Source of the DNA: an uncultured bacterium
GTDB lineage: Bacteria > Zixibacteria > MSB-5A5 > UBA10806
Assembly (NCBI GenBank): GCA_965541585.1
Contig: CBEUCH010000002.1
Coordinates: forward strand, 128,001-192,000
Reading direction: 5' to 3'
Length of the DNA: 64,000 nt
In this document: piece after piece, positions 5,695 to 28,729 of the stretch
Position numbering within the stretch: position 1 is the first letter of the stretch
Layout of the letters: each line of letters opens with the position of its first letter
The notes under the pieces: model-generated
Seen by the model: the letters and a program-made list of their open reading frames with translations, nothing else
The model's database searches: none
Told to the model about the DNA's origin: nothing
Program-made: the position numbers and the translations under genes

Positions 5695-8600
5695 CTACTT
5701 AATCAATAGCATCTTCTTGGAGGCGTGATAATCATCGGCTTTGATCCTGTAGAAATAGACGCCGGTCGATACCTGATTGCCGGAATCATCATTGCCATCC
5801 CATATGACCGATCGGTAACCGGCAGCCTGACGCTCGTCCACCAGCGTGTGAACGTTCTGCCCGAGGATATTATAGATTTCGATTCTGACATCGGCATCAT
5901 CCGGCAGGCCATAGGAGATCGTGGTAACGGGATTGAACGGATTAGGATAGTTCTGGGAGATGAAGAAATGTTCCGGAACTGCGGGCAAATCGTCGTCCGT
6001 TCCCGTCAGAACCTCCATGGTACCGGAATCGTAGTTGGACGGGAACGACTCGGCATCGCCGTAGTCTCCCGAATAAACAGCGGTCACGTGATACCAGTAA
6101 ACGTCATTATCGGGTACGTTAAAGTCTGTGAAACTTGCCTCGGTAACCGGTTCGTCGTTAAGCATCTCGGTATCGCCGCTCTCCCATTTGGCACGGAGAA
6201 CATTATACCCGTCGATATCCGGATGGACAACAGCGTCCCAGGTCAGCTCTATCCTGTCTCCCAATCCCTCGGAGGCCTCGAGGTTCTCCGGTGCGGGGCA
6301 TCTGGTCATGCTGAAGTCGATTTCACCGGTCGTCATGTCGGCCTCGACATTTATACCTTCCAATGTCATGGGGAAATAGCCTTTAATTTCAGCGGTCACA
6401 TCGGGTGTGCCGGGTGGAACCTCCCTGATCCAGTAGTCGCCCGATTGAGGAGTGATCCTGTACTGGCCGCTGGATGTCGAAATTTTGACATCCTGATTGA
6501 ACCCGAAGTTGGCCAGGTCGACATTACCCATGATGGCTCCCCGGCCGGTATTGGTTGTGATCTTGATAGCCCTGTTACTTGTCAGGGTTGCCGCCCCGGA
6601 GGAGTAAGAGTTGTCGAAAGTATATTCAATTCCCATTAATTGATCAAAACTCTCAAAACCGACCGACGAATAGAGTTCCTGGGAGTCGTTATTGGCTATC
6701 GACTGGTATTGGTAATAGAATTCGGCATCGCCGGTTATGGTCGGATAGTAAGCGGGATCGGTGATAATCATCTCAAATGTCTCGGTGGAGCCGGTATTCC
6801 TGTGTCTCATATGATACCATTCGATAACAAACCTGTGGTTGGCTTCGTCGTGCCAGGTGTAAACTCCGTAGGTACTGCCGGTGTATTCAAGATCGTCCCA
6901 GAACGGGGATATCTGCCCCCGTGCGTTGCCGGGATCGGGGATCGGCCAGTTGGAAAAGTTATACCAGTAGGTACGGCCCTGGTCATAGGGGTCGATGTCG
7001 ACTGCCGCAAACCCGTTGGTGCAAACGATAATATCGTCATATGCCCGTCCGTAGTAAACAAAATCAAAGGGCAGGTTAACCAGGACGGAGTAATCATCCT
7101 GATTGCTGAAATACAGGCGCGTGCCATCGCCTCCGAGGTTCGGTACGATCTCCACCCAGTCGTAAGCCGGTTGTTGAGCATAGCCGGCATCGCTATTATC
7201 GTACATGTAATAACCGTATGCGTCCGGACCAACAGGATCGCTCGGCAGTACGTTGCCCACGGTTACCGTAAACGGTACCGAAGATTGCGCGCCGGCGGAT
7301 GTAACGGTATGCAGAATCAGATTCAGGGTTCTGCCGTCGAAAGTGCCGGCATCGCAGGATATTACCATAGGATCAGCCGAGTTGTTGCCCGAACCGCCCC
7401 CGGGTATTCTGCCGAAACTGCCGCTTTCCGAGATGATGGTGGCATAGTCGTCAGCTGTCGCAACGATAGCGGTAACTCCCTCCGCATCCATGGACCCCAT
7501 GTTCTCAAGGGTGAGGACCATGTCTAACGTTTCACCGGGATCGAGTCTCCCGTTTCCTCCGGGGAACGCCACCATGATAACCCTGAACTTAGGGGCTTCG
7601 ACGGGGATCTCTACAACGGATTGCCATGAATCGCTATTGTTGTCAGTGGCTGTTATCTTCAGCCGGGCCACGTCTCCATACCGGGCATAGGGGTCAATCC
7701 TGATAACAAAGGGGGTTTCCGACGAAGCGGTCTCGCCGGCTGCGATATCGCCAAAGTCGCGAACGGCATCGTATACGTTTGCTAATTCCACATCAATAGG
7801 CTCGAGAACGACATTGACCTCGTATGCGGTCTGGTCGTCGCTGAAGTTCTTCAAATCTACAGAAAGCTCTATTATTTCACCCGGGTTGGCATTTCCGTCT
7901 CCATCACCGGAGGAATAACCGGAATCATCATCGTCGACTGCATGAGAATCGTAGCCCACTGCCAGCTCGCCTCTTGTTAACGTCACGGTGCCCTGGTAAG
8001 GATAGAGATCGCGGCCAGAGACCGTAAGATACATGGTACCGGCCGTGCTTGCATCGAATGAGAATGATATATTGCCGTAGGAATCGGTCTTGCCTACTTC
8101 GAAAACCTCTTCGTCATCCCATGAACCTTTTACCAGCGTAACGTATGCGCCTTCCACGGCTTGTTCGGTGTTGTCGGTGACTATGGCCTGGATATGGTTG
8201 ATGCCCTGACCGAGAGATGGGGGATGAGATACGTTTATGATCCTGGGAACGGCTGTTCTAACCTCCAGTTCAGGATCTCCAAGCATATTGTAGGTGTGAA
8301 AATACTTTCGGATCTCACTATCGACGTAGCGTGGGAATGTATTGTACTGCTGTATCTTTCCCCTGACAGCAGCGGCTGCGAAATGGTAGATGCCTTCGCC
8401 GAAGATGCCCCAGTAGTAACCGGTCATTATGGGGTTGTTCCAACGAGTATGCGTGTCGGGGTCAGATGCTCCGAAAAATGCCGGCCCGCCTTTATAGCTG
8501 GTAGGCGAGGAACCCATCTGGATCCACATCTCTCCGAAACACTGGTTGGAGCCAAAATTGCCTGTTCCGCATACTATGGAGGCCATTACGCCGAGCTTGT

Positions 8601-17338: not shown

Positions 17339-17863
17339 ATGCTATTGAAGCTTAAGATCAAATCACCGGTACTGAAGTCTCTTGCAAAACTTTACATAGC
17401 CTTCGGCGCGATTCTGGTTTTTTTTATTGTCATCTTTAACACCCAGATCTTTTACTTGAATGTCAACGTCCCTTTTACATCATTCATCGTTCTTTCATCC
17501 AGCTTTTTGATAAATCTGTTCGGAGGAACCTCGTTCGTTGACGGCACTCATCTGTCCACCGCGCAGTTCGGCATCAATGTCGTCGACGGCTGCAACGGGA
17601 TCTATGCCACGGCCATACTACTGTCGGGCGTTATCGCGTATCCCGCCAGGCTGACCCATAAGATGCTGGGTGTGCTTGTTGGAATTGTCGCCATTTTCGT
17701 TCTCAACCTGGTGCGGGTGATAAGCCTTCTATATCTCGGGCAGTATTTCCCCGATATATTTAAAGAAATTCACGTTTTTATCTGGCAGCCTATCATAATC
17801 CTGTGGGCGATCTATATCTGGTATTTGTGGTGGCACAAGATTGAAGGCAAAGAAGCCAAATAA
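17339..17863 (+). CDS. xrtH: exosortase H (IPTL-CTERM specific)
   Basis: VVDGCNG catalytic Cys, LNLVR Arg, EIH His; multi-TM; lies next to an IPTL-CTERM gene. Confidence 0.8.
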   Translation: MLLKLKIKSPVLKSLAKLYIAFGAILVFFIVIFNTQIFYLNVNVPFTSFIVLSSSFLINLFGGTSFVDGTHLSTAQFGINVVDGCNGIYATAILLSGVIAYPARLTHKMLGVLVGIVAIFVLNLVRVISLLYLGQYFPDIFKEIHVFIWQPIIILWAIYIWYLWWHKIEGKEAK

Positions 17864-18431
17864 ATGGTTTTTTCTTCTCAGGTTTTTGATCGCCTTTGCG
17901 ATCATTTACCTGCTGTGGAATTTCTCGGCTCCCCTCGCGAATAGAGTGTTTACATTTTTCGGCGGAAATATCCTGATGCTGTTTGACGGCGCAAACTATA
18001 CCAGGGCAGTTGAGCCCGACGGTGAATTCATTGTTGTTGTCTTCGGGGCCGGCAAAAATGTTGAAACGCTCAATCTTGAGTACAAGGGATTCACATTCAA
18101 CACCGTATTATTGCTGGCGCTGATTCTGGCGGTGCCGGATGTGAATTATAAACTCCGCCTGAAGATATTGATTCTTGGTATGGTAGTGCTATACCCGATA
18201 CAGATTATCAGGCTGGTCATTTTCATTTTCAACTACTATTGCCAGAATATGGGGCGACGAGGCGGGGGTACCTTATACCCTCAGTTTACGCATAATGCGA
18301 TCGGCTATGTCGATAAAACGCTGATAAGGATTGATGGCCAGATAATACCGGTATTCATATGGGCTGGATTATTTTATTATTACAAGTGGCATAACGTATT
18401 TACCAAAATGATGAAAAAGAGATCCGCCTGA
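17841..18431 (+). CDS. exosortase H-associated membrane protein
   Basis: Multi-TM ORF overlapping xrtH; LLLALILAVP motif. Confidence 0.65.
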   Translation: MKAKKPNKWFFLLRFLIAFAIIYLLWNFSAPLANRVFTFFGGNILMLFDGANYTRAVEPDGEFIVVVFGAGKNVETLNLEYKGFTFNTVLLLALILAVPDVNYKLRLKILILGMVVLYPIQIIRLVIFIFNYYCQNMGRRGGGTLYPQFTHNAIGYVDKTLIRIDGQIIPVFIWAGLFYYYKWHNVFTKMMKKRSA

Positions 18432-18545
18432 ATTCCGGAGCGGAATAAAATTTACACTAATAAAAAAGCTGTTATAAAAGCAAAGGGGCGCACTGCGCAT
18501 CCATATTAGATTTCGCAATACGCCCCCGCTCCTTTTTAAAATGCC

Positions 18546-18579
18546 GGAGGCGTCAGGCTTTAGAACCTGACGCCCCTCC
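18546..18579. repeat. REP-like hairpin
   Basis: ggcgtcagg-ctttagaa-cctgacgcc; gaggcgtcaggct recurs at 42403-42415. Confidence 0.45.
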
Positions 18580-18582
18580 AGA

Positions 18583-18792
18583 TTACTCTTCCTCCTTTGA
18601 CCGTCTACCGTAGTAGATCCAGAGATGAACGATGTAGGCGATGATAATCATACTGATCAAAGTGCCCGCAAGATCCATAGTGGTAATTGAACCGGCTATC
18701 AGAACAACGCCGGTTATACCGGCGATAGCAACTACAAAAGCCACAGCCAGGACCCTGAAGAACACCGAGGGTATGAAAATCGGTTCGCCCAT
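18583..18792 (-). CDS. small two-TM membrane protein coupled to the IPTL-CTERM gene
   Basis: TGATG stop/start overlap; two hydrophobic helices and a basic tail. Confidence 0.6.
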   Translation of the reverse strand: MGEPIFIPSVFFRVLAVAFVVAIAGITGVVLIAGSITTMDLAGTLISMIIIAYIVHLWIYYGRRSKEEE

Positions 18793-21626
18793 CAGTTGGC
18801 TCTTGTCAAAGCAGTTTTACGCCTGCGAACAATAGCGATAGTTCCGGCGGTCAGCAACATCAACCCAAGTATGATCATACCCCATTCGGAGAGGGTGGGG
18901 ATGGCTTCGACGACATCATGCGGCGGCCAGATATCATGCTGCGCGCAACCGGCAGGTTCTACAAGCGATGTTATGGGTATAGAGTGATTCACCGCCGGTT
19001 CGGCGCATTGGACACACGGTATTGCCTGAAGTCCGGGTATTAGATCAACAGCGCTGGGACCGATCGGTATGTCAGGTATATCGTCGCAATTACTCACTAA
19101 ATCGCCGACGCTTGATGTATACACGCCGAAGCCCGGATCTGAAAACATCCAGTGACCGTCTTCGATATTCATTAAATCAATGGCCGGGATTCCGTAATCA
19201 CCGTAATCAACATAGTATTCTAAAGCGTCGGATACCCGGGTAAAGACGATTTTCGGGACTACGGGTACATAGGCAAAAAACGTGCCTCCTTCTTCACAGA
19301 CCCGGTCAAAGTTCATTCCGCCTGTTGGCTGCCCGCGGGATTCTGACAGGCACACCTTGACATCCCACGCTTCAGGATTTTGGCCGCCGTTGTAAGTTAC
19401 CGTTATAGGTTGACTACTCACTAAACTCAGCGCCACTATCTCGATATCTATATTATGATCCTGAGAGGGACACTGAGGTAGATTTGCGACTCTACTTCGT
19501 TTGATTATTGTGTCGGTGGGCCCTAAATTCCCGTTAGTCGCCAGTGGCTCACCCTCTAAAGCAATAGTACCGGCGAAAGGATCCGAGCCGGGCCCGAAGA
19601 AGTCAGCCGGTATCGGGAGTGTGCTTTCCCCGCAGCCGAGATTCACAAATGTATTGTAGCCTTCCGGCGTTTCCCACAAGTCGTAAACCGGATCTTCTTG
19701 CACTGGACAATCTACATCAACACAGTTCAGGCCGGGGTAGAAGACGCCGCCGTTATCCTCGCAGATAGACTGGGTTTCCATTGTGCATAAACCATCGGGC
19801 CAGCAGCAGGCGCCTGTTTCCTGAACCGGTTCACTGGTGATGCAGAACGACAGGTCGAGCGATTGCTGACCCGACGGCAGGCATTCGTGCTCGATAATCC
19901 CGGGCTCGTTATCCCAGATTACGAAGTTAAATCCCCTGACATCTACGGAGACCCACTCCGGGTTATACTCCTCAATTAAAAACCCGAAGAACTCAAATAT
20001 TTCATAACCGTTTGGAAGGTCGCTCATAACAACCGGGAAGCGCTCAATATGTATTTCATCAGTCGGTTCAGTCGGTGGGGGCTCACCTGGCGGCCACTCA
20101 GGACCTGACCAGTTGATGGCGATCTCAACCCAGGCGGGAGCCCCGGGATCTAATTTCCATACCGAGCCCATTATGGAGATTTCCTTGTAGCGCGTGAGAT
20201 CGAGCGGGTCATTGTAGAACCAGATATTCCACCAACCGCTGGGGTACCAGAACCATCCATTGATACCACCAGGGCCATTGTAATAATCGGTACCTCCGCT
20301 CATCCCGGGAACGAGCTGCCCGCTTTGATCCATCCCCACCCAGAAGGAGTTGACGACCGGCCCGCCGCCTCCACCGGGCTCGTAAATCTCCGTCCAGAGG
20401 TCAGGAGGAAGCGGGGCATCGGGATCCGGGCCCCAAACCGCATCGTCCATCCAGTGATCCTGGGTTGATTTCCATCCCCAGTGTGTGTTAACCGGATCGA
20501 CGACATCGGCCGAAATCCTCAACCAGTAAATTTGGCCGACTGTCTGCACGCATGGTTCAGGCAGGAAGTAATCGTAACGGAAATATTGCTGGTGGTCACC
20601 GGGGATAATCTCGCCCTGGACAGGATCATACCATCCCTGTGGAGACGGATCCATAAGGGTGGTGGTGTATTCCCCTTCCAGTATATACATCGGGGGGCAG
20701 ACAATTTGGCCCGGTACGCTCCAGCCGTTTGGTCCCACGGGGATATTGTCGTGGATAGTGATCCAAAAGCCCCGGAGTTGGCCGATATCATCATGCCTCC
20801 ACGAACCCCACCAATGGATATCCTCGAGCTGGCCCGTCTCCGTGCACTGCCAGTCATCCGCCAGAGAGATGGGAGCGGTGGCATTAACGTCCCAACCGTT
20901 GGGATCCGGCAGCTGCGGGAAATGCATCTTGTGGTTTGCGCAATCACCGTCTTGGCAATTGGGAGAGTTTGTCTCGGTATCTACCCAGAAAAGCGGAGCG
21001 CCGCCAGAATAATAACTGCTCCACATATACCAAGTGCCCCCAGAATACGCCCAGTGCTCACATGGGACCGGGGGACAGATGAGTGGTTCATCCATTAAAA
21101 ATGAAGGAAGGCTTCCCCCAGGATCGCTATATTCAATACCGATATAGACCGGTCCGTTAACACAGCAGGGAGTCGAATAAGTTAATGGACCCACAGTGGG
21201 ATACTCATAAGTGGCGGCATCACAGATAAAAGTCTCACGGCAGAGTTCCGCGCCGGGTCCCGCGCATGGATCTCCGGGAATCAGCATATCGTATACCACG
21301 AAATCAACCTGAACCGGAAACGGCAAAGCGCCATCGTCATAAAGAGTAATCCACAGTGTAGTTATTTCAAGAGGGTATGTTGGAGCCGGGCAAACCGCCC
21401 ATGGATCATAATATGTGATTGCGCGGTCGCCAGTAACCAAGCCTGGATTATAGTAGCCCGGAATATTGCATGTCTTCGTAAGCAGGCAATAATCAAGAGT
21501 GGTCTGCGGCTGTTCGATAGGCAGTACCTCGCCTATTCTCGAGCCTTTTAGTTCACCCTTCGCCATGGCTGCAGTGCCGAGGATCAGGACAAGGCCGAGG
21601 GTTAAAATCAATGACTTTTTAAGCAT
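18792..21626 (-). CDS. secreted surface protein with IPTL-CTERM sorting signal
   Basis: Ends IPTLSEWGMIILGLMLLTAGTIAIVRRRK; start reassigned to ATG 21626 (MLKKSLIL signal peptide, ggagaa RBS). Confidence 0.85.
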   Translation of the reverse strand: MLKKSLILTLGLVLILGTAAMAKGELKGSRIGEVLPIEQPQTTLDYCLLTKTCNIPGYYNPGLVTGDRAITYYDPWAVCPAPTYPLEITTLWITLYDDGALPFPVQVDFVVYDMLIPGDPCAGPGAELCRETFICDAATYEYPTVGPLTYSTPCCVNGPVYIGIEYSDPGGSLPSFLMDEPLICPPVPCEHWAYSGGTWYMWSSYYSGGAPLFWVDTETNSPNCQDGDCANHKMHFPQLPDPNGWDVNATAPISLADDWQCTETGQLEDIHWWGSWRHDDIGQLRGFWITIHDNIPVGPNGWSVPGQIVCPPMYILEGEYTTTLMDPSPQGWYDPVQGEIIPGDHQQYFRYDYFLPEPCVQTVGQIYWLRISADVVDPVNTHWGWKSTQDHWMDDAVWGPDPDAPLPPDLWTEIYEPGGGGGPVVNSFWVGMDQSGQLVPGMSGGTDYYNGPGGINGWFWYPSGWWNIWFYNDPLDLTRYKEISIMGSVWKLDPGAPAWVEIAINWSGPEWPPGEPPPTEPTDEIHIERFPVVMSDLPNGYEIFEFFGFLIEEYNPEWVSVDVRGFNFVIWDNEPGIIEHECLPSGQQSLDLSFCITSEPVQETGACCWPDGLCTMETQSICEDNGGVFYPGLNCVDVDCPVQEDPVYDLWETPEGYNTFVNLGCGESTLPIPADFFGPGSDPFAGTIALEGEPLATNGNLGPTDTIIKRSRVANLPQCPSQDHNIDIEIVALSLVSSQPITVTYNGGQNPEAWDVKVCLSESRGQPTGGMNFDRVCEEGGTFFAYVPVVPKIVFTRVSDALEYYVDYGDYGIPAIDLMNIEDGHWMFSDPGFGVYTSSVGDLVSNCDDIPDIPIGPSAVDLIPGLQAIPCVQCAEPAVNHSIPITSLVEPAGCAQHDIWPPHDVVEAIPTLSEWGMIILGLMLLTAGTIAIVRRRKTALTRAN

Positions 21627-21728
21627 TAAATTCTCCAATTCTAATTGCTTGAATTTATTGTGCTGTCGAGTCTCAATATTCGGCAACTTTAATATCAGGT
21701 GCAGAGACTCAACACCGCATCTGGATGT

Positions 21729-22415
21729 TTAGCTCATCCCGGGAGGTTTAATCGGCGGCGCACGGAGATTAGGTAAATAGTCCCATCTCTTTGTTGAACT
21801 GATACCTTCAAAAAGCGGAAATAATTTTCTTGCCAAGGGAAATCTCAAGCCCGCAATTGAGAATCGGATTCGGCTTACATACTCGATAAGCATGAGAATT
21901 ATGGAGTTAACAAGCACGATGAAAAACGAGATCATCAATAAGCCGAAAAGAGATGCAAACCGGATAAGCTCGCTCGAATCGGCCGTCGGGAAACTTAAGA
22001 CGCCTCCCATGCCCGGGTACCTGATCAAGAAATATTCAAGAGGAACCCATATGGCGGCGACAAAAACAGGGTTAAATCCGATATATTTTTTTGCTCCATT
22101 GACGGCCATTCCGAAGATTGAAAAGACCAGGCTCAATAATAATAGATTAAGGAGAAAGTCCGCGGGAGCGGCCAGAGCCTCGCCAATGAAAGCGACGAAG
22201 GCATAGCAGCCGGCAAGAATCACACCCAGCAGAATAGAACCGGCCAAGGTTGTTCTGTTCAATTGCCACAGGAGTGGAACCAGGGCAAATAGCGATATGA
22301 ACCAGTATTCAGGATATATATGGGCAATCGATAGGATTAAAGCCGACGTTCCGGCGCAGATAAAATGAGCCAATAGTCTCACCGTGATATCGTTATGCCT
22401 TGAATCCGCATCCAT
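21729..22415 (-). CDS. Lnt N-terminal-like multi-TM protein lacking the CN-hydrolase domain, with C-terminal RAPP motif
   Basis: FALVPLL, AIWVPLEY and ASLFGLLMISFFIVLVN resemble Lnt TM segments; ends WDYLPNLRAPPIKPPGMS. Confidence 0.7.
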   Translation of the reverse strand: MDADSRHNDITVRLLAHFICAGTSALILSIAHIYPEYWFISLFALVPLLWQLNRTTLAGSILLGVILAGCYAFVAFIGEALAAPADFLLNLLLLSLVFSIFGMAVNGAKKYIGFNPVFVAAIWVPLEYFLIRYPGMGGVLSFPTADSSELIRFASLFGLLMISFFIVLVNSIILMLIEYVSRIRFSIAGLRFPLARKLFPLFEGISSTKRWDYLPNLRAPPIKPPGMS

Positions 22416-22726
22416 TATTTTTGTCTGTCTCCGGCGATGAGGCTCCTCCCTCTATACCGTACCAGTGAGCGGGACCATTGACGCATAAATCTGCGGACGG
22501 ATGCGCGGCTTTACCAATGAGCAGAAGGCGACTCCAGATAGGCTACTAATATTAATTTTGTGCCTCCTGTGAGGCTAATCTGTTTCTCTGACAGCCTTGA
22601 TCACGTGATGCGAAGTCTGTGAACCCGCCGTCAGATAATCAATTACAAGCCCTGGCTTCAGCCTGAAGAGATTTAGTTGTGAAAGTGTGTTGAGTCAGAA
22701 ATGCTCAATCATCAATTTCTAATATT

Positions 22727-22755
22727 AAGATAGGCGACCCACATTTACTTGTCAA
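22727..22755 (-). promoter_or_regulatory. sigma70-type promoter of the RAPP/IPTL transcript
   Basis: TTGACA-17-TATCTT on the minus strand, about 310 nt upstream of ATG 22415. Confidence 0.55.
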
Positions 22756-23009
22756 GAAAAAAATAGAGGGGATTATCAACATAGGAGACCGGCGAGGTCG
22801 AAGGCCCTCACGGGGGCGGTGCGCCGGCCAAAAAGCGCCTGAAATTCTGGCGAAAGCCCGGAAAATATATTACATTGGTATAATGAGCATCGGGCTTTTG
22901 GACGACAGCAAAGGCTGGAACGATGATCAGTTGTATTCTGTTGGATAAGAGAGTGCGAATCGGATTGGTGTGAGCATTTGAGTAGACCTTTTTCCGGGAG
23001 GTTGACAGC

Positions 23010-26000
23010 ATGGGGTTGCGTATAATTGTCCTTTCCTTATTTATCCGGGCCACAGCTCTCGGGGTCGAGAGTGGCGATTTTACTTTTTATGACGGCGAAT
23101 CGACTGTAGCCGCCACCGTTCAGCAAGTGGATCGTACCGTTTTAAACCTTCAGATCTCGAACCTCGAATATGAAGTTGATAGCGATAACGGAATAGACCA
23201 ATACCGGATTCATTTGCCGGAGGTGTTTGGCGTATCGAGGGGAGCATTTCTGAGTTCGAATAATGTGTTGATCCCTACCATAACCAGATCCATTGCCGTA
23301 CCGTTTGATTCGGAGCCGGTGTTCCGTGTGACCTGGTCGAATTTTGTGGAATTGACGGATATAGTACTTGCGCCTGCAGGCGAGGAGGAATTGGATTCGT
23401 ATTCCAACGGCAATGAGAATATCTCATCGAGCCTCGAGAGGGACCTGGTGATCGCGGAAACGGCGGGGATGATGCGGGATGTAAGAATATATTCTCTGAC
23501 GATCTCGCCGGTGCAATATGATTTGGAAAGCAAAGTCGTTAAAGTCTATAACGAAATTGAAATCGAGATCGACCATGGCGGTTCACGGATGGTACGTTAC
23601 GAGGACCATATATCGGAGGCTTTCTTGCCGATCTATCGCTCGTTTCTGGATAATCTCCTGGTGTTCGACCCGATTGAGGTAACCCGTGGCGCCGACTGGA
23701 TCATATACCCCGATCCTTTCCTCGAACATATACGGCCCATAGCGGAATGGAAAAGGGCCAAGGGTTATGATGTTGAATATATTGCCAAAAGCGATATTGG
23801 CTCCAACCCATCGTATGTGGCTATAAGAGACTATATCTCGGCGCGTTTCGACTCGTGTCAGATTAAGCCGGATTATATTACCATCCTGGGAGACGTCAGC
23901 ATGCCGTCCGGTTATGGAATCCCTACGCGACACTATGATAATCCTCTGGGTTTTGGCGATATAGAATCGGATAATTACTATACGTTTCTCCTGGGTGGCG
24001 ATTATTTCCCGGATGTGTTAATAGGGAGAATAGCCATAGACTACGTTGCCGAGCTTGAGGATTACACGGATAAGCTTTTCACATACGAGAGAACCCCGTA
24101 TATGGATGATACACGCTGGTATTTGAGGGGGACCATGGTCGCGTATTGGGAAGTCGAAGGCGACGGCGGCTGGTATGGAAATTTCACAAGCCCCAGAATC
24201 ACGAAGCTCTGGTGTCGCGATCGCATGTTTGAAAGCGGATATATCCAGGTAGATACTCTTTTCGAACATCCCCGGTATTATGTTCCTTCCAGCCAGATCA
24301 ACGCCTCTATAAACAATGGCGTATCCTATGTGAATTACCGCGGCTTTGGCGATCCATCCGGATGGAGTTACCCTTATTACACATTTAATGATATTAGCGA
24401 TCTTACCAACGGTCCCATGTATCCTATAATGACATCCATCGTTTGCGGGACAGGAGACTATAATGACTACCGCGACATCTGTTTCGGCGAGGCCTGGATA
24501 CGCTATCCGGACAAGGGCGGGGCAGGATTCATTGGCACCAGTAACCACGATGCTCACACGCGATGGACTAACGCTCTGGATGTAGGTATTTACTGGGGCC
24601 TGTTCGTAGAACATGCAACGACTATTGCCCAGGCCCAACTAATGGGAAAGATGACGATGTACGACGCTTTCCCAACCGACCGTTATCCCAACGGCCAGGT
24701 CGAGCTTTATTTCAATAGCTACAATATCCTTGGTGATCCGGAGTTGAATTGCTGGACCGGAGTGCCGAGAAGCATGTCGGTGGCTCATGCCGATTCGGTG
24801 GAATTCGGTCAGAATTATATAAGCGTATCCGTCACCGATAATATGGGGGGCACGCCTCTCGAGGGAGCTTATGTCTGTATATGGAAAGATGGGGAACTGT
24901 TCCTTGGGGAATTTACTCCCGCGGACGGTGTCGCTGAATTCGCGGCCGGACCGGATACCAGGGGCGAGATGGCCTTAACGGTTACTGCCCGCGACTTTGC
25001 CCCTTATGAGGGAACCGTTACCTATTTCACCAGCGAGATAACAGTGGGATACAATTCTCATACGGTTGACGACAACAACGAAGGCGAGTCCTCAGGCAAC
25101 GGCGACGGAATCTGCAGCCCGTCGGAGGTTGTAGAGCTCGACCTTACCCTTGAAAATTATGGCCAATCGGAAACCGCTATCGGGGTGACCGCGGAGATAT
25201 CGTCGGATAACTCTCATGTGGAGATTGTGCGCGCTACAGCCGGTTTCGCCGATATTTCTCCGGGCGAGAGCAGCCCCGCCGATAATCCTTTTTTAATAGA
25301 GGTTAGCCCCGACGCACCAAACGGGACAGGTATCGATCTTATCATTTCCATAAGCGATGAAGATGATAACGCCTGGGAATCCATTATACAGTTGCCCGTT
25401 GAAGCGGCCGAATTCGCAATGGAAGAATTGATCATTCAGGATGACGGCAACGGTATGATAGATCCGGGAGAAACGGTCGAGCTTGTAATAACTCTCGAGA
25501 ATGTCGGTGCACAGCCCATGGCGGGAGCGACCGCGGTATTGAGAACGTCCGACGATCAGGTGACGGTTATGGATTCGACAGCCTTGTTCGGCGACTGCGT
25601 TCCCGGAGGGACTTTCGACAACGATGGCGACACGTTTATGTTAACGGTGGAATCCGATATTTATGTAGGACATTTGATAAACTTTACTCTGGAGTTCGAG
25701 GGCGAGGGGCCGCAAATAGTAACATCCGCTTTTGCCGAACAGGTAGGTGCTGTATCGTCGAGTGATCCCATCGGCCCGGACGATTATGGGTATTACTGCT
25801 TCGATAACACCGATTCTGCCTATTCCGATCGCCCGGTATATGACTGGATTGATATCGATACTCAGAACTGGAATCACGTAACATTGGGCGACGACAACAC
25901 GGAGACGATATCGCTGCCGTTTGAGGTTTGGTACTATGGGCAGATTTTCAGTGAGATCACCATCTGTGACAACGGCTTTGTGGCCCTGGGCGAATCCTGG

Positions 26001-26705
26001 TGGAACGCCTGGTACAATACGTCGATTCCCGCACCTCAGAACGCCGCCGCTATGATCGCGCCTTTCTGGGATGACTTCAATCAGAGCAATCTTAGAGTAT
26101 ATTACCATCACGATACCGACAACTCCCGCTTCATAATCGGGTGGAATAATGCCTGGGACCAGGACGTTTACCGGTACCAGACATTCGAGATAATCTTTCT
26201 GGATCGAACCGCCTGGCCGTCCGCCACCGGCGATAACGAAATAATCTTCCAGTATGAGCTTGTTAATAGCGCTTATTCGTCGTCGGTGGGGATCTGTTCC
26301 CCCGATAGAAGAGATGGTATCGGTTATATTTTTAATGGCGATTACGCTGATGGTGCGGCAACCCTAAATAACACCCGGGCCGTGAAATTCACGACCGGAT
26401 CTCTATACCAGACCGGTATTGAGGAAGAGCAGGAGTTGCCGGAGAGCATGGCGCTATCTCAAAACTATCCTAATCCCTTTAATGCCTCTACCTCCATCGA
26501 TTTTTCGATTCCCGGGGAAGGACACGTAAAGCTCGAGGTATTCAATATCCTCGGGCAGAGGATCGCCATCCTGATCAATGGTCATCTGGATGCGGGCTTC
26601 CATCGGATTGCATGGGGCGCTGACGATTTGCGTTCGGGGATTTACTTTTACAGGCTGGAGACCGGTGATCTGACCGAAACAAAGAGAATGATGCTTTTGA
26701 AATGA
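23010..26705 (+). CDS. second C25 (gingipain-like) secreted protein with FlgD/T9SS-A-like tail
   Basis: IAEWKRAKGY, YITILGD, YNILGDPEL, IVCGTG; paralog of 5695..10029. Confidence 0.85.
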   Translation: MGLRIIVLSLFIRATALGVESGDFTFYDGESTVAATVQQVDRTVLNLQISNLEYEVDSDNGIDQYRIHLPEVFGVSRGAFLSSNNVLIPTITRSIAVPFDSEPVFRVTWSNFVELTDIVLAPAGEEELDSYSNGNENISSSLERDLVIAETAGMMRDVRIYSLTISPVQYDLESKVVKVYNEIEIEIDHGGSRMVRYEDHISEAFLPIYRSFLDNLLVFDPIEVTRGADWIIYPDPFLEHIRPIAEWKRAKGYDVEYIAKSDIGSNPSYVAIRDYISARFDSCQIKPDYITILGDVSMPSGYGIPTRHYDNPLGFGDIESDNYYTFLLGGDYFPDVLIGRIAIDYVAELEDYTDKLFTYERTPYMDDTRWYLRGTMVAYWEVEGDGGWYGNFTSPRITKLWCRDRMFESGYIQVDTLFEHPRYYVPSSQINASINNGVSYVNYRGFGDPSGWSYPYYTFNDISDLTNGPMYPIMTSIVCGTGDYNDYRDICFGEAWIRYPDKGGAGFIGTSNHDAHTRWTNALDVGIYWGLFVEHATTIAQAQLMGKMTMYDAFPTDRYPNGQVELYFNSYNILGDPELNCWTGVPRSMSVAHADSVEFGQNYISVSVTDNMGGTPLEGAYVCIWKDGELFLGEFTPADGVAEFAAGPDTRGEMALTVTARDFAPYEGTVTYFTSEITVGYNSHTVDDNNEGESSGNGDGICSPSEVVELDLTLENYGQSETAIGVTAEISSDNSHVEIVRATAGFADISPGESSPADNPFLIEVSPDAPNGTGIDLIISISDEDDNAWESIIQLPVEAAEFAMEELIIQDDGNGMIDPGETVELVITLENVGAQPMAGATAVLRTSDDQVTVMDSTALFGDCVPGGTFDNDGDTFMLTVESDIYVGHLINFTLEFEGEGPQIVTSAFAEQVGAVSSSDPIGPDDYGYYCFDNTDSAYSDRPVYDWIDIDTQNWNHVTLGDDNTETISLPFEVWYYGQIFSEITICDNGFVALGESWWNAWYNTSIPAPQNAAAMIAPFWDDFNQSNLRVYYHHDTDNSRFIIGWNNAWDQDVYRYQTFEIIFLDRTAWPSATGDNEIIFQYELVNSAYSSSVGICSPDRRDGIGYIFNGDYADGAATLNNTRAVKFTTGSLYQTGIEEEQELPESMALSQNYPNPFNASTSIDFSIPGEGHVKLEVFNILGQRIAILINGHLDAGFHRIAWGADDLRSGIYFYRLETGDLTETKRMMLLK

Positions 26706-26799: not shown

Positions 26800-26875
26800 A
26801 TATTGACGAAAAAACGTTTTTGATTATATTGAATTGATGAAAGAAATTATCGATAAGTTGTTCAAGGAGTTTTCG

Positions 26876-28729
26876 ATGCGATCTGGCATGCTGATTTTCG
26901 CAGTATTGATCCTGCTCTCATATGCTCCCGAGTCTGGCGCTCAACTTCCTGAAATATATACCAGGTACAGCGATGCTCTGCAAACCCTGGCGGATCTGCA
27001 GGGAGATTATCCGGAGATCTGCAAGCTGGATACCATGGGTTATTCCACCCGTGACTCCATCCCCATGCTGAGAGTCAAGATTTCGGACAACGTTAACATT
27101 GACGAAGATGAACCTGCGATCTTCTATTGCGGGGGAGTCCACGCCGACGAGGTGTTGAGCGTGGAGGTCGTTATGTCATTTGTACAGGATATTCTGATTC
27201 GTTACGGGCGTGGAGATCCCGATGTCACCCGCTATATAGCCAGCCTCGAAATATTCTGTATCCCGTTCATCAATCCCGAGGGGCATATAGTGGTGGAGGA
27301 GGGGGATACCGAATGGCGCAAGAACAAATGTGACAACGACGACAACGGGATATTCGATTTTCACGACGGCGTCGACAACAACCGCAACTATGATTTCGGC
27401 TTTTGGATAGACGACGGCCCCAACGCCACCACTCCGGAATCTCTCACGTACAAGGGCGAGGCTCCGTTCACCCAGACCGAGAATATCGCTATGGCGGAGT
27501 TCGGATGGAAGTATCGGCCGCTTATAGCGCTGGATTACCATTCGCCGACCTACGGCAGACCCAACGTGGCGTATTATCCGTGGTACTGGTATGCCAATGA
27601 AGGCGGTAATGGTTTCGGCCCCGATGAAACCCTGATGCAATCTGTCTGCGCATTATTTGCATCATTAATAGAAGCCATACCGGATGATTCGGGCAACGGC
27701 ACTTATACGGCCAGGAGGGCTCTGGTCAACAAAGGTGATTTCAAGACATATTTCTACGGTAACTTCGGAACTGCGGCCTTTTCGGTGGAGGTTTCCGACA
27801 CTACGATCCAGAACCCTGCTCTGGTTGACACAATAGTCGCCGCTCATCTTCCGGGGCAATATTATCTTCTCGAGCGGGCTCTGGGTGCAGGTATTACAGG
27901 GGTCATCCGGGATTCTGTCACGCTGGAGCCGATCGAGGCGGAGGTGCAGGTTCTCCAGCATATTAACGCTGATATCAATCCCCGTCTGTCCAGGCCTGAT
28001 TACGGACGCTATCGCCGGCTGCTGTCTTCGGGAAGCTATACATTGAAGTTTCTCAAAGACGACTATAGAACCATAACGGTCTACAATGTCGGGGTGACGA
28101 ACAGCGGGCCGACCGAGGTCAACATGCTTCTATCCCCGCTGTATCCGCGGCCGCCGGCGCCGGTTTTGAGCTACCCGCCCGAGGATACGACCTTAAATGA
28201 CAACCTGGTGGTTTTCGACTGGAATCCATCGGATCTGGCGGATTTCTATCTCTTCGAGCTTTATCAGCATCCGGACCTGGAGACTCCGGTATATGTCGAT
28301 TCCTCCTTAATTGATACATCGTTCACTCTCGACACCCCTCTTTCGGATACGGTTTACTACTGGATGGTTAAAGGGGGCAACTCCAACGGCTGGGGCCCGT
28401 ATTCGGATCTGTGGATGTTCGTTGTGAATACCGAGACGGGAACAGATGATCCCGTCCACCAGCCTCGCGCCTTTGAGTTGTATCAGAATCATCCCAACCC
28501 GTTTAATACCTCCACCCTGATCGAGTACAATCTGCCTTCAGCTTCGGATGTAACGCTTGAAATTTACAACATACTCGGTCAGAGGGTAGCGATACTTTTG
28601 GATAGAACCCTGCAGGCCGGGGAGCATAGTATCAAATGGGATGCATCCGGTTTTCATTCCGGCGTCTATTTTGTGAGGCTGGAGGCTGAGGGGTATACCG
28701 AAAATATCAAGATCGTATTGCTAAAATAG
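26876..28729 (+). CDS. M14 zinc carboxypeptidase with FlgD/T9SS-A-like tail
   Basis: GVHADE, NPEG, WRKN, GVDNNRNY, DYHS; start moved to ATG 26876 (aaggag RBS). Confidence 0.9.
   Translation: MRSGMLIFAVLILLSYAPESGAQLPEIYTRYSDALQTLADLQGDYPEICKLDTMGYSTRDSIPMLRVKISDNVNIDEDEPAIFYCGGVHADEVLSVEVVMSFVQDILIRYGRGDPDVTRYIASLEIFCIPFINPEGHIVVEEGDTEWRKNKCDNDDNGIFDFHDGVDNNRNYDFGFWIDDGPNATTPESLTYKGEAPFTQTENIAMAEFGWKYRPLIALDYHSPTYGRPNVAYYPWYWYANEGGNGFGPDETLMQSVCALFASLIEAIPDDSGNGTYTARRALVNKGDFKTYFYGNFGTAAFSVEVSDTTIQNPALVDTIVAAHLPGQYYLLERALGAGITGVIRDSVTLEPIEAEVQVLQHINADINPRLSRPDYGRYRRLLSSGSYTLKFLKDDYRTITVYNVGVTNSGPTEVNMLLSPLYPRPPAPVLSYPPEDTTLNDNLVVFDWNPSDLADFYLFELYQHPDLETPVYVDSSLIDTSFTLDTPLSDTVYYWMVKGGNSNGWGPYSDLWMFVVNTETGTDDPVHQPRAFELYQNHPNPFNTSTLIEYNLPSASDVTLEIYNILGQRVAILLDRTLQAGEHSIKWDASGFHSGVYFVRLEAEGYTENIKIVLLK

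Follow-up and report, generated by a model that had tools for sequence, protein, structure and literature searches.

Does a membrane protein with a RAPP sequence close to its C terminus arrest its own translation and thereby control the exosortase substrate encoded directly behind it? A locus in the window, the 64,000-nucleotide stretch of DNA analysed here, raises this question. The initial annotation had taken the protein to be an Lnt-derived membrane-insertion sensor with an arrest motif, acting on the IPTL-CTERM gene across a gap that contains an RNA stem. Our analysis makes it probable that a six-TM Lnt-derived protein with a RAPP-type arrest tail heads an operon-like cassette of XrtH substrates. 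The conserved tail and the synteny suggest a link between translational arrest and exosortase H sorting.

The Lnt-like protein and its cassette

The genes of the locus are as follows.

21729..22415, minus strand: LNT_N-only six-TM membrane protein with C-terminal RAPP, a 228-aa ORF
18792..21626, minus strand: XrtH substrate with a signal peptide, DUF7901 and an IPTL-CTERM sorting signal (ATG 21626)
18583..18792, minus strand: 69-aa small membrane protein, abutting the IPTL-CTERM gene
17841..18431, plus strand: XrtH-associated membrane protein (NF041730, 40.9 bits, cutoff 35)
17339..17863, plus strand: exosortase H, XrtH (TIGR04177, 97.6 bits, cutoff 86)

The 228-aa protein, whose C terminus reads KRWDYLPNLRAPPIKPPGMS, contains LNT_N (PF20154) as its sole Pfam domain (41.7 bits, cutoff 27.1, residues 24-171). 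The domain is complete, spanning profile positions 1-158 of 159. Pfam detected no nitrilase-type (CN hydrolase) catalytic domain, and the NCBIfam lnt model (TIGR00546) scored 21.5 bits against a cutoff of 132.9, aligning at model positions 3-122 of 395 only. No Pfam or NCBIfam model besides LNT_N matched. Lnt shares the LNT_N domain, and carries in addition a nitrilase-type catalytic domain and a C-terminal TM after it. As the 228-aa protein has neither, it cannot be an Lnt-type acyltransferase. The AF2 model of the protein (pLDDT 75.8) comprises six TM helices. In a Foldseek search of the PDB, its 14 best matches were all Lnt, although weak (E 0.24-0.6); because none reached E ≤ 0.001, the relationship to Lnt rests mainly on Pfam. 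A profile search of PDB sequences using the family alignment returned only a chance match (UPK1B, E 0.044) and did not reach Lnt.

A length-filtered search identified a stand-alone family of 58 matches of 130-280 aa. Without the filter, 222 family representatives were found at E ≤ 1e-3, the best 150 of which are 91-291 aa long, and the typical family length is about 225 aa; the homologues are thus not full-length Lnt. Judged from its sequence, the protein is the membrane domain of Lnt only and a member of a stand-alone family, and the original description of the ORF as resembling just the membrane part of Lnt was borne out. The family has six hydrophobic segments and loops with alternating K+R counts, which together indicate an N-in/C-in topology. 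The C-terminal tail, with a mean of 6.2 K+R, is predicted to be cytoplasmic. Among the LNT_N residues, S24, A25, P47, W123, E127, F157, S163 and N170 are conserved. This conservation goes beyond the need of a mere force generator, and the protein may therefore have a function of its own.

The downstream gene matched Pfam DUF7901 (2.6e-43), Pfam IPTL-CTERM (28.9 bits, above cutoff) and NCBIfam TIGR04174 (27.3 bits, cutoff 20.5). The two components that define an XrtH/IPTL-CTERM system, an exosortase H and an IPTL-CTERM substrate, are thus both encoded in the window. The XrtH gene is convergent with the cassette, and the genes for XrtH and its associated membrane protein also adjoin the cassette in loci L002, L005 and L008. 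The 69-aa gene occurs at the same place in L001, L002 and L005, with 59-91% identity (tblastn).

We compared the cassette with 19 related loci from genome contigs. The next co-oriented gene encodes a strict IPTL-type signal in 16 of the 19, a variant in two (L006 and L009) and none in L010, bearing out the proposed position upstream of secreted proteins. IPTL-CTERM models reached their cutoffs in 9 of the 18 downstream genes scanned. The 19 loci and the window together hold 20 IPTL-like ORFs: 17 lie directly behind an Lnt-like gene, three are second in tandem behind one (L016, L018 and L019), and none stands apart from an Lnt-like gene. One MAG carries five cassettes (L010, L012, L013, L014 and L016). 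The passenger domains of the downstream proteins (172-944 aa; DUF7901, SdrD_B or none) are diverse, indicating that the link of the Lnt-like gene is to the sorting signal. Overall, these data support a conserved position upstream of IPTL-CTERM (XrtH) substrates across paralogous cassettes. As in the RAPP class of arrest proteins, a target gene of a conserved type follows immediately downstream in the same orientation.

The R-x-P-P motif and its distance from TM6

The C-terminal part of the ORF is divided as follows.

21876..21959, minus strand: TM6, the proposed force generator (about residues 153-180), containing the near-invariant N170
21792..21875, minus strand: spacer (residues 181-208) of near-random sequence and fixed length
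21765..21791, minus strand: pre-motif segment (residues 209-217) with the semi-conserved family consensus K/R-R-W-Y-Y-[LF]-P-[DN]-x
21753..21764, minus strand: RAPP codons CGT GCG CCG CCG, followed by 7 sense codons and then TAA (21731-21729)
21758-21756 and 21755-21753, minus strand: P-site CCG and A-site CCG of the arrest point predicted by analogy with ApdA/ApdP (PMC12992588)
21729..21752, minus strand: unconstrained post-motif tail IKPPGMS and stop codon

The coordinates of the RAPP motif, placed 7 codons before the stop by the initial annotation, were confirmed. One RAPP in the 22,673 aa of ORFs in the window is not by itself beyond chance; we judged the motif real because it is conserved across the family. 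In an alignment of 57 family sequences, all 57 have R218, P220 and P221. Among 204 pooled family proteins, 184 contain R[AGSDC]PP (RAPP 124, RGPP 43, RSPP 11, RDPP 5, RCPP 1), and RAPP or RGPP accounts for 167. Conservation of a terminal RAPP-type motif in the homologues was thus verified. In four full-length members, the Arg is replaced by K, L or P (KDPP, LSPP twice and PDPP).

According to mutagenesis of ApdA/ApdP described in PMC12992588, no other residue can stand in for the Arg, whereas the Ala can be exchanged for Gly with full arrest and for Ser, Asp or Pro with partial arrest. The natural variation of the family at position 2 (A, G, S, D) fits these arrest-compatible residues. Past the motif, the family alignment has an entropy of ~3.8 bits and a rising gap fraction, and the tail varies from 0 to 94 aa (median 7). 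Such freedom is expected if these residues lie outside the arrested chain. The family also shares with the RAPP class a conserved R-[A/G]-P-P core and its location near the C terminus of a membrane protein of <300 aa. The tail of the Lnt-like protein may therefore be annotated as a putative RAPP-type ribosome arrest module.

R-x-P-P might instead function at the level of the protein, as a polyproline docking or processing site. The protein would then be an accessory or structural partner of XrtH, for example a lipid- or anchor-binding subunit, no arrest would be programmed, and the pairing of the genes would reflect a functional partnership. The strong conservation of the membrane domain, polar intramembrane residues included, speaks for this possibility, as do the neighbouring genes for XrtH, its associated protein and the small membrane protein (in the window, L002, L005 and L008) and the four members that lack the Arg. 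By contrast, the match of position 2 to the arrest mutagenesis spectrum and the free sequence and length of the post-motif tail are at odds with it. The three loci in which one Lnt-like gene precedes two substrates argue against a 1:1 stoichiometry, and RAPP/RGPP is, as described in PMC12992588, selected against in proteomes unless it serves arrest. We consider a protein-level role unlikely.

The family-mean hydrophobic segment for TM6 covers residues 154-175. Within it, N170 is kept in 98% of 176 sequences and lies 48 aa from R218 in 159 of them, with a range of 47-51 in all 176. The intervening spacer has column entropies of 2.8-3.9 bits and almost no gaps, and its pLDDT in the AF2 model is low. 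In the pre-motif segment, which we infer would occupy the upper exit tunnel at the stall, P215, Y212 and W211 are conserved at 66%, 53% and 40%, respectively. A TM helix pulls on the nascent chain from the point at which its N-end lies some 45 residues away from the peptidyl-transferase centre until its C-end lies some 45 residues away from it, according to PMC7886326. For TM6 at residues 153-180, this corresponds to chain lengths of ~198-225, and a stall at 220-221 falls inside this range. The predicted geometry fits force-sensitive arrest. The fixed 48-residue spacing would represent a naturally tuned force sensor and is directly testable.

A proposed route from a stalled ribosome to the downstream gene

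In the arrest mechanism that we propose, the ribosome would stall at 21758-21753, where the P-site tRNA carries ...R-A-P and the A site is occupied by Pro-tRNA. The C-end of TM6 would then be ~40-43 residues from the peptidyl-transferase centre, inside the pulling window for TM integration. The duration of the stall would be set by the integration or packing of TM6, possibly via something bound by the LNT_N domain, and the stalled ribosome would influence, in cis, how the downstream substrate gene is expressed. If general insertion capacity alone were sensed, the sign of the regulation would be counter-intuitive, as the target is cargo, not machinery. We also entertain, as a speculative extension, that the Lnt-derived domain is a ligand sensor. 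While nascent, it would recognise the IPTL-CTERM anchor of unprocessed substrate or a lipid used by XrtH, and this interaction would pull TM6 and release the RAPP arrest, such that the cassettes autoregulate their cargo according to the exosortase-H backlog. If this were true, a sortase-like sorting system would for the first time have a 'monitoring substrate', amplified to one sensor per cargo operon. A complex prediction for the Lnt-like protein and the C-terminal 60 residues of the IPTL-CTERM protein speaks neither way (score 0.01, mark 0.32).

The following intergenic features bear on how a stall could affect the downstream gene.

21627..21728, minus strand: intergenic gap of 102 nt holding the stem and the SD
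21714-21704 and 21674-21664, minus strand: stem arms enclosing a 29-nt loop; of the 11 bp, one is G-U
21636-21632, minus strand: SD GGAGA of the downstream gene, before ATG 21626

In the window, pairing between the arrest-site codons and the downstream SD is feasible and would allow SecM-like unmasking. The 171-nt MFE structure contains a three-way junction whose closing helices involve the arrest-site codons 21768-21755, with UCUCC (21768-21764) paired to the SD; this pairing has a probability of 0.32 with more 5' context, and the junction loses to alternative folds once such context is added. We compared the RNA output of 18 cassettes, comprising the window and 17 loci. Pairing of the SD to the ribosome footprint reached P ≥ 0.3 in 6 of the 18 and beat shuffles (≤2 of 30) only in L004 and L015. 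Forcing a stalled ribosome opened the ribosome-binding site by >0.15 over the 'upstream translated only' state in 1 of 18. SecM-like SD unmasking is therefore not supported as a general mechanism, and its lack of conservation in relatives makes the output step the weakest part of the proposed mechanism. A general intergenic structure was likewise rejected, as z was below -2 in only 4 of the 18 cassettes.

By composition only, no Rho-type C>G bubble was found across the 18 cassettes: the mean C-G, +0.04 for the stall site and between -0.01 and -0.03 for the intergenic regions, did not exceed that of the upstream ORF. A CruR-like rut composition was rejected since the leader end and the intergenic region lack a C-rich/G-poor stretch. 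Rfam matched nothing at E ≤ 1 in positions 18000-23200, and a promoter scan detected no sigma-70-like promoter on the minus strand of the gap. The sole terminator-like match in the terminator scan, at the stem, sits on the wrong strand.

These findings bear on a second alternative, in which the arrest is real and is not an SD or Rho switch. It would instead buy time for TM6 to integrate or for the Lnt-like protein to assemble, or it would hold the bicistronic mRNA at the membrane and so have the substrate produced beside its sorting machinery. Consistent with such a role, the 18 cassettes share no RNA switch or rut-like composition, the distance from stall site to downstream start varies widely (69-302 nt across loci), and the downstream genes carry good SDs of their own. 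However, the characterised RAPP-type systems in the literature searched all act on downstream expression, and we regard this alternative as doubtful.

It is more doubtful still that the stem is the switch by which a stall tunes the IPTL-CTERM gene. The gap of roughly 100 nt and the 11-bp stem were described correctly at the outset: ViennaRNA forms 10 of the 11 pairs, the fold of the region is more stable than that of shuffled sequences (z = -2.62, 1 of 200 as good; z = -2.33, 2 of 100), and the stem lies inside the three-way junction that the arrest-site codons and the SD close. The SD is nevertheless outside the stem, which lies ~41 nt 3' of the P site, beyond the footprint of the stalled ribosome. 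Moreover, neither L001, which is the closest relative by DNA (80% protein identity), nor the other loci have the stem, and the junction that contains it is outcompeted in longer RNA. Finally, the solitary LNT_N domain might be taken for the remnant of a truncated or decayed lnt in which RAPP arose by chance; this reading was rejected as having a negligible chance of being correct, given a stand-alone family of this size and length range with conserved residues and a conserved C-terminal motif.

Of the initial interpretation, the solitary Lnt membrane domain, the conserved R-x-P-P, the position upstream of IPTL-CTERM genes and the fitting geometry held, whereas the stem is not conserved and the 18 cassettes share no general signature of SD unmasking or Rho.

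Novelty and comparison with known arrest systems

Exosortase systems are widespread, and their regulation and mechanism are poorly understood; literature searches on XrtH or IPTL-CTERM returned nothing substantive. The pairing had at first not been recognised as a described one. Our literature searches found no paper that links LNT_N-RxPP with XrtH/IPTL, but the general RAPP/RGPP class was published in December 2025 (PMC12992588). Neither the main text nor the searched supplement text of that paper mentions Lnt, exosortase or IPTL, the searched supplement text has no apolipoprotein or Zixi term either, and the family may still be in its Source Data gene lists. What appears new in our analysis is the combination of an enzyme-derived sensor domain with sorting-system cargo as the target of a predicted RAPP arrest. 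If the RAPP tail stalls ribosomes, nascent-chain sensing would extend from export machinery and metal homeostasis to the cargo of a sorting pathway, and an arrest protein would have taken over the membrane domain of an enzyme as its sensing part.

In MifM/ApcA-type systems, insertion of a TM releases the arrest. The Lnt-like family shares with them the proposed release by integration of a TM that is spaced at a set distance to the arrest point. As they have been described, they differ in possessing a single TM, in lacking a conserved membrane domain and in regulating the insertase itself.

ApdA/ApdP-type arrest peptides are reportedly the subject of work by Sakiyama (2021). As described by Fujiwara (2024, PMC10987492) and Morici (2024, PMC10951233), ApdA, ApdP and the 'RQH' peptides share with the Lnt-like family an R-A/G-P-P core at the C terminus, a few residues ahead of the stop, a family-specific sequence N-terminal of this core, and membrane targeting of a protein whose gene immediately precedes another gene in the same orientation. 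They are small, contain a signal peptide or a single TM, and precede machinery genes (secA, secDF and yidC). By contrast, the Lnt-like family, with its putative arrest tail, has a six-TM enzyme-derived domain and precedes sorting-system cargo.

In CruR of Bordetella, RAPP controls the downstream gene (Roy 2022, PMC9426467). According to that account, CruR likewise heads an operon, and the spacing between its sensing element and RAPP matters. It senses copper via CXXC, and the stall blocks Rho at a C>G bubble; neither of these features was seen in the cassettes of the Lnt-like family.

Small membrane or secretory proteins with RAPP/RGPP, encoded upstream of diverse genes and including four-TM proteins with conserved TMs, stall ribosomes (Fujiwara 2025, PMC12992588). 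As presented there, SLIV_18480, 27375, 33595 and 33605 of S. lividans resemble the Lnt-like protein as multi-TM proteins of <300 aa that have conserved TMs, carry RAPP/RGPP at the C terminus and are encoded upstream of a gene with no relation to Sec/YidC. The Lnt-like family differs from the proteins described in that work in its LNT_N sensor domain, its IPTL-CTERM/XrtH targets and its several paralogous cassettes per genome.

The Lnt-like leader and its locus

The leader is an Lnt-like membrane protein that ends in a RAPP motif and is encoded upstream of an IPTL-CTERM protein, a substrate of exosortase H (XrtH). We refer to the LNT_N-RxPP leader gene together with its downstream substrate gene(s) as a cassette. 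Every detail of the sequence observation in the initial annotation was borne out: an ORF with LNT_N only, the position of RAPP, the gap, the stem and the IPTL-CTERM gene.

Features of the window locus
21729-22415, minus strand: LNT_N-RxPP leader gene, 228 aa, C-terminal end ...KRWDYLPNLRAPPIKPPGMS
21764-21753, minus strand: RAPP codons, seven codons ahead of the stop
102 nt, minus strand: intergenic gap from the leader gene to the IPTL-CTERM gene
21714-21704 and 21674-21664, minus strand: arms of the stem, 11 bp with one G-U
21626 (ATG), minus strand, Shine-Dalgarno (SD) sequence GGAGA at 21636-21632: downstream gene, encoding a signal peptide, DUF7901 and an IPTL-CTERM sorting signal (Pfam, NCBIfam)
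18583-18792, minus strand: gene for a 69-aa small membrane protein, abutting the end of the IPTL-CTERM gene
17841-18431, convergent with the cassette: XrtH-associated membrane protein, above the NCBIfam cutoff
17339-17863, convergent with the cassette: XrtH, above the NCBIfam cutoff

According to Pfam, the 228-aa protein contains LNT_N alone (41.7 bits, cutoff 27.1; residues 24-171). Its score against the NCBIfam lnt equivalog was 21.5 bits versus a cutoff of 132.9, with a match to only positions 3-122 of the 395 in the model. A word-indexed search identified 58 relatives of 130-280 aa, and an exhaustive HMMER search for proteins of any length yielded 222 cluster representatives at E ≤ 1e-3. 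The initial annotation had allowed that the homologues might be full-length Lnt; the best 150 of the 222 representatives were 91-291 aa long, and none of these was a full-length Lnt. This stand-alone family of short relatives rules out a truncated Lnt.

An AF2 model calculated from a 57-row alignment (mean pLDDT 75.8) contained six transmembrane (TM) helices and a tail that was disordered from ∼residue 192. The 14 best Foldseek matches in the PDB were all Lnt, with weak scores (E 0.24-0.6; TM-score 0.36 over ∼134 columns) and no match reaching E ≤ 0.001. Family-averaged hydropathy likewise revealed six hydrophobic segments. The number of Lys and Arg residues per loop alternated (1.6, 0.14, 1.3, 0.16, 2.4 and 1.5; 6.2 in the tail), a sequence pattern that indicates a predicted N-in/C-in topology with the tail in the cytoplasm.

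Conservation and spacing of the R-x-P-P motif

Arg218, Pro220 and Pro221, numbered as in the window protein, were invariant across a 57-sequence alignment from which a 130-aa fragment (P0057) was omitted. Conservation of R-x-P-P in homologues, a check proposed at the outset, extended to the pooled proteins: 184/204 carried R[AGSDC]PP (RAPP, 124; RGPP, 43; RSPP, 11; RDPP, 5; RCPP, 1), a count that leaves out five further proteins matching R-x-P-G alone. The motif was absent from 15/204, comprising nine fragments that ended before or within TM6, two proteins with unrelated tails and four full-length proteins in which Lys, Leu or Pro replaced Arg. The last four (P0124, P0126, P0135 and P0154) carry KDPP, LSPP or PDPP, and are possible natural loss-of-arrest variants.

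In systematic mutagenesis of the arrest peptides ApdA and ApdP (PMC12992588), no residue could replace Arg, whereas at the Ala position Gly was fully permissive or even enhanced arrest, and partial permissiveness was seen for Ser, Asp and Pro. The second motif residue was Ala, Gly, Ser or Asp, and thus inside this permissive set, in 183 of the 184 motif-bearing members. The nine residues preceding the motif were semi-conserved (K/R-R-W-Y-Y-[LF]-P-[DN]-x); those following it were unconstrained in sequence (∼3.8 bits entropy) and number (0-94 aa, median 7). We conclude that a RAPP-type arrest module is probably under selection in the LNT_N-RxPP family.

Asn170, a near-invariant residue of TM6, was exactly 48 residues away from Arg218 in 159 of the 176 full-length members, with a range of 47-51 over the whole set, and the spacer (columns 181-208) had an entropy of 2.8-3.9 bits despite its fixed length. 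A TM helix exerts a pull on the nascent chain, beginning once ∼45 residues separate its N-terminal end from the peptidyl-transferase centre and ending when that distance applies to its C-terminal end, according to force-profile work (PMC7886326). For TM6, at ∼153-180, the pulling window would span chain lengths of ∼198-225, which include the predicted stall at 220-221. Such a geometry is consistent with an arrest that responds to force and is tuned to the final membrane-integration step, and we tentatively suggest TM6 integration as a possible releasing force.

Cassettes in related loci

We examined synteny in 19 related loci from one scan of genome contigs, the MAGs being labelled Zixibacteria, Ignavibacteria, Deferrimicrobium or unclassified. 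Five cassette copies were present in a single MAG. The predicted position of the leader upstream of secreted proteins held in most loci: in 16/19, the next co-oriented gene encoded a protein with a signal peptide and, at its C-terminal end, x-P-[STA]-[LM]-[ST]-x-[WY]-G, a hydrophobic helix and a cluster of basic residues, and two (L006 and L009, whose ORF runs off the contig) had a variant sorting signal. Only at L010 (1883-3022) did the downstream protein lack an IPTL-type signal; repeated segments of the form D-[VL]-x-D-L-T-x-L-V-A-Y-L-F-Q-x-G make up its C-terminal end, and the protein matched no NCBIfam or Pfam family. Curated IPTL-CTERM models recognized 7/18 proteins at cutoff in each of NCBIfam and Pfam (union 9/18). 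The passenger regions were varied (172-944 aa), containing DUF7901, DUF7451, SdrD_B or no domain.

Among 20 IPTL-like ORFs in the loci and window, 17 were directly behind an LNT_N-RxPP gene, three were second in tandem and none stood apart.

Second substrate genes, directly behind the first
7528-8268: L016
1970-2917: L018
2511-3533: L019

These tandem genes indicate that one leader is able to head two substrates. In L002, L005 and L008, just as at the window locus, XrtH and its associated protein adjoin the cassette; L006 has a weak XrtH-like match (31% identity), and the remaining copies had no adjacent XrtH within the flanks examined. The duplicating unit is therefore the leader with its substrate(s), and it is the sorting signal to which the leader is linked.

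The gene for the 69-aa protein occupies the same position in L001, L002 and L005 (59-91% identity). The protein, for which no Pfam or NCBIfam family scored above cutoff, is possibly an additional XrtH-locus component. Separately, the window encodes two large proteins with T9SS type A sorting domains (TIGR04183; 41 and 46 bits) at 23010-26705 and 26834-28729 on the plus strand, the former weakly similar to a PorU-like sortase. The organism therefore uses both T9SS and XrtH sorting, a combination that fits a Zixibacteria/FCB-group origin.

Proposed downstream control and known arrest peptides

How a stall would act on the downstream gene is the weak part of the explanation. When 171 nt of the window were folded, a three-way junction appeared whose closing helices were formed by the arrest-site codons (21768-21755), and UCUCC (21768-21764) paired with the downstream SD. 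A stalled ribosome would therefore free the SD, as in SecM. The probability of this pairing was 0.32 once the 5′ context was extended. Across 18 cassettes (the window and 17 loci), the SD paired with the footprint, the mRNA under the stalled ribosome, at P ≥ 0.3 in six (window, L001, L004, L005, L012 and L015), and exceeded footprint shuffles (≤2 of 30) in L004 and L015 only. The Pro-Pro codons CCU CCU are a perfect anti-SD sequence in L004, L006 and L015, with predicted pairing to the downstream SD of P = 0.75 in L004 and 0.73 in L015. Forcing the footprint single-stranded raised ribosome-binding-site accessibility by >0.15 over upstream translation alone in 1/18.

The stem, initially proposed as part of downstream control, is present in the window, where its region was more stable than shuffles (z = −2.6 and −2.3 in two shuffle runs), but L001, the nearest of the relatives for which DNA was available, lacks it. 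Intergenic regions were significantly structured in 4/18 cassettes. In L011, the 284 nt from stall site to start, mostly intergenic (∼804-1047), form a long extended hairpin (z = −6.4; 0/100 shuffles as good). An Rfam search found nothing. On balance, we lean slightly towards cis-control of the downstream XrtH substrate by arrest. The overall reading that we favour, with moderate confidence, is of an Lnt-derived six-TM protein with a RAPP arrest module that heads an XrtH-substrate cassette and controls it in cis through the predicted stall.

Sakiyama 2021 reportedly described arrest peptides of the RAPP/RGPP type encoded upstream of sec and yidC genes. Such an arrangement is established (PMC10987492, PMC10951233). 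According to Fujiwara et al. (December 2025; PMC12992588), proteomes are depleted of RAPP/RGPP; the motif is overrepresented at the C-terminal ends of small proteins of secretory or membrane type and is found upstream of diverse genes; seven Streptomyces lividans proteins that contain it stall ribosomes. Membrane proteins of this RAPP/RGPP kind were therefore already known. In the paper library searched, we found no paper pairing "exosortase" or "apolipoprotein N-acyltransferase" with "arrest peptide", and nothing relevant on XrtH/IPTL-CTERM; neither term occurs in both Fujiwara main texts or in the readable supplement text. CruR acts by a Rho mechanism at a C>G bubble (PMC9426467), whereas composition analysis of the LNT_N-RxPP cassettes revealed no such bubble. 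Four of the seven S. lividans proteins are predicted to have four TM segments, in contrast to the six TMs and complete LNT_N domain of the present family. It is this putative sensor domain that is new here, together with the target, exosortase H cargo, and the multi-copy cassette organisation.
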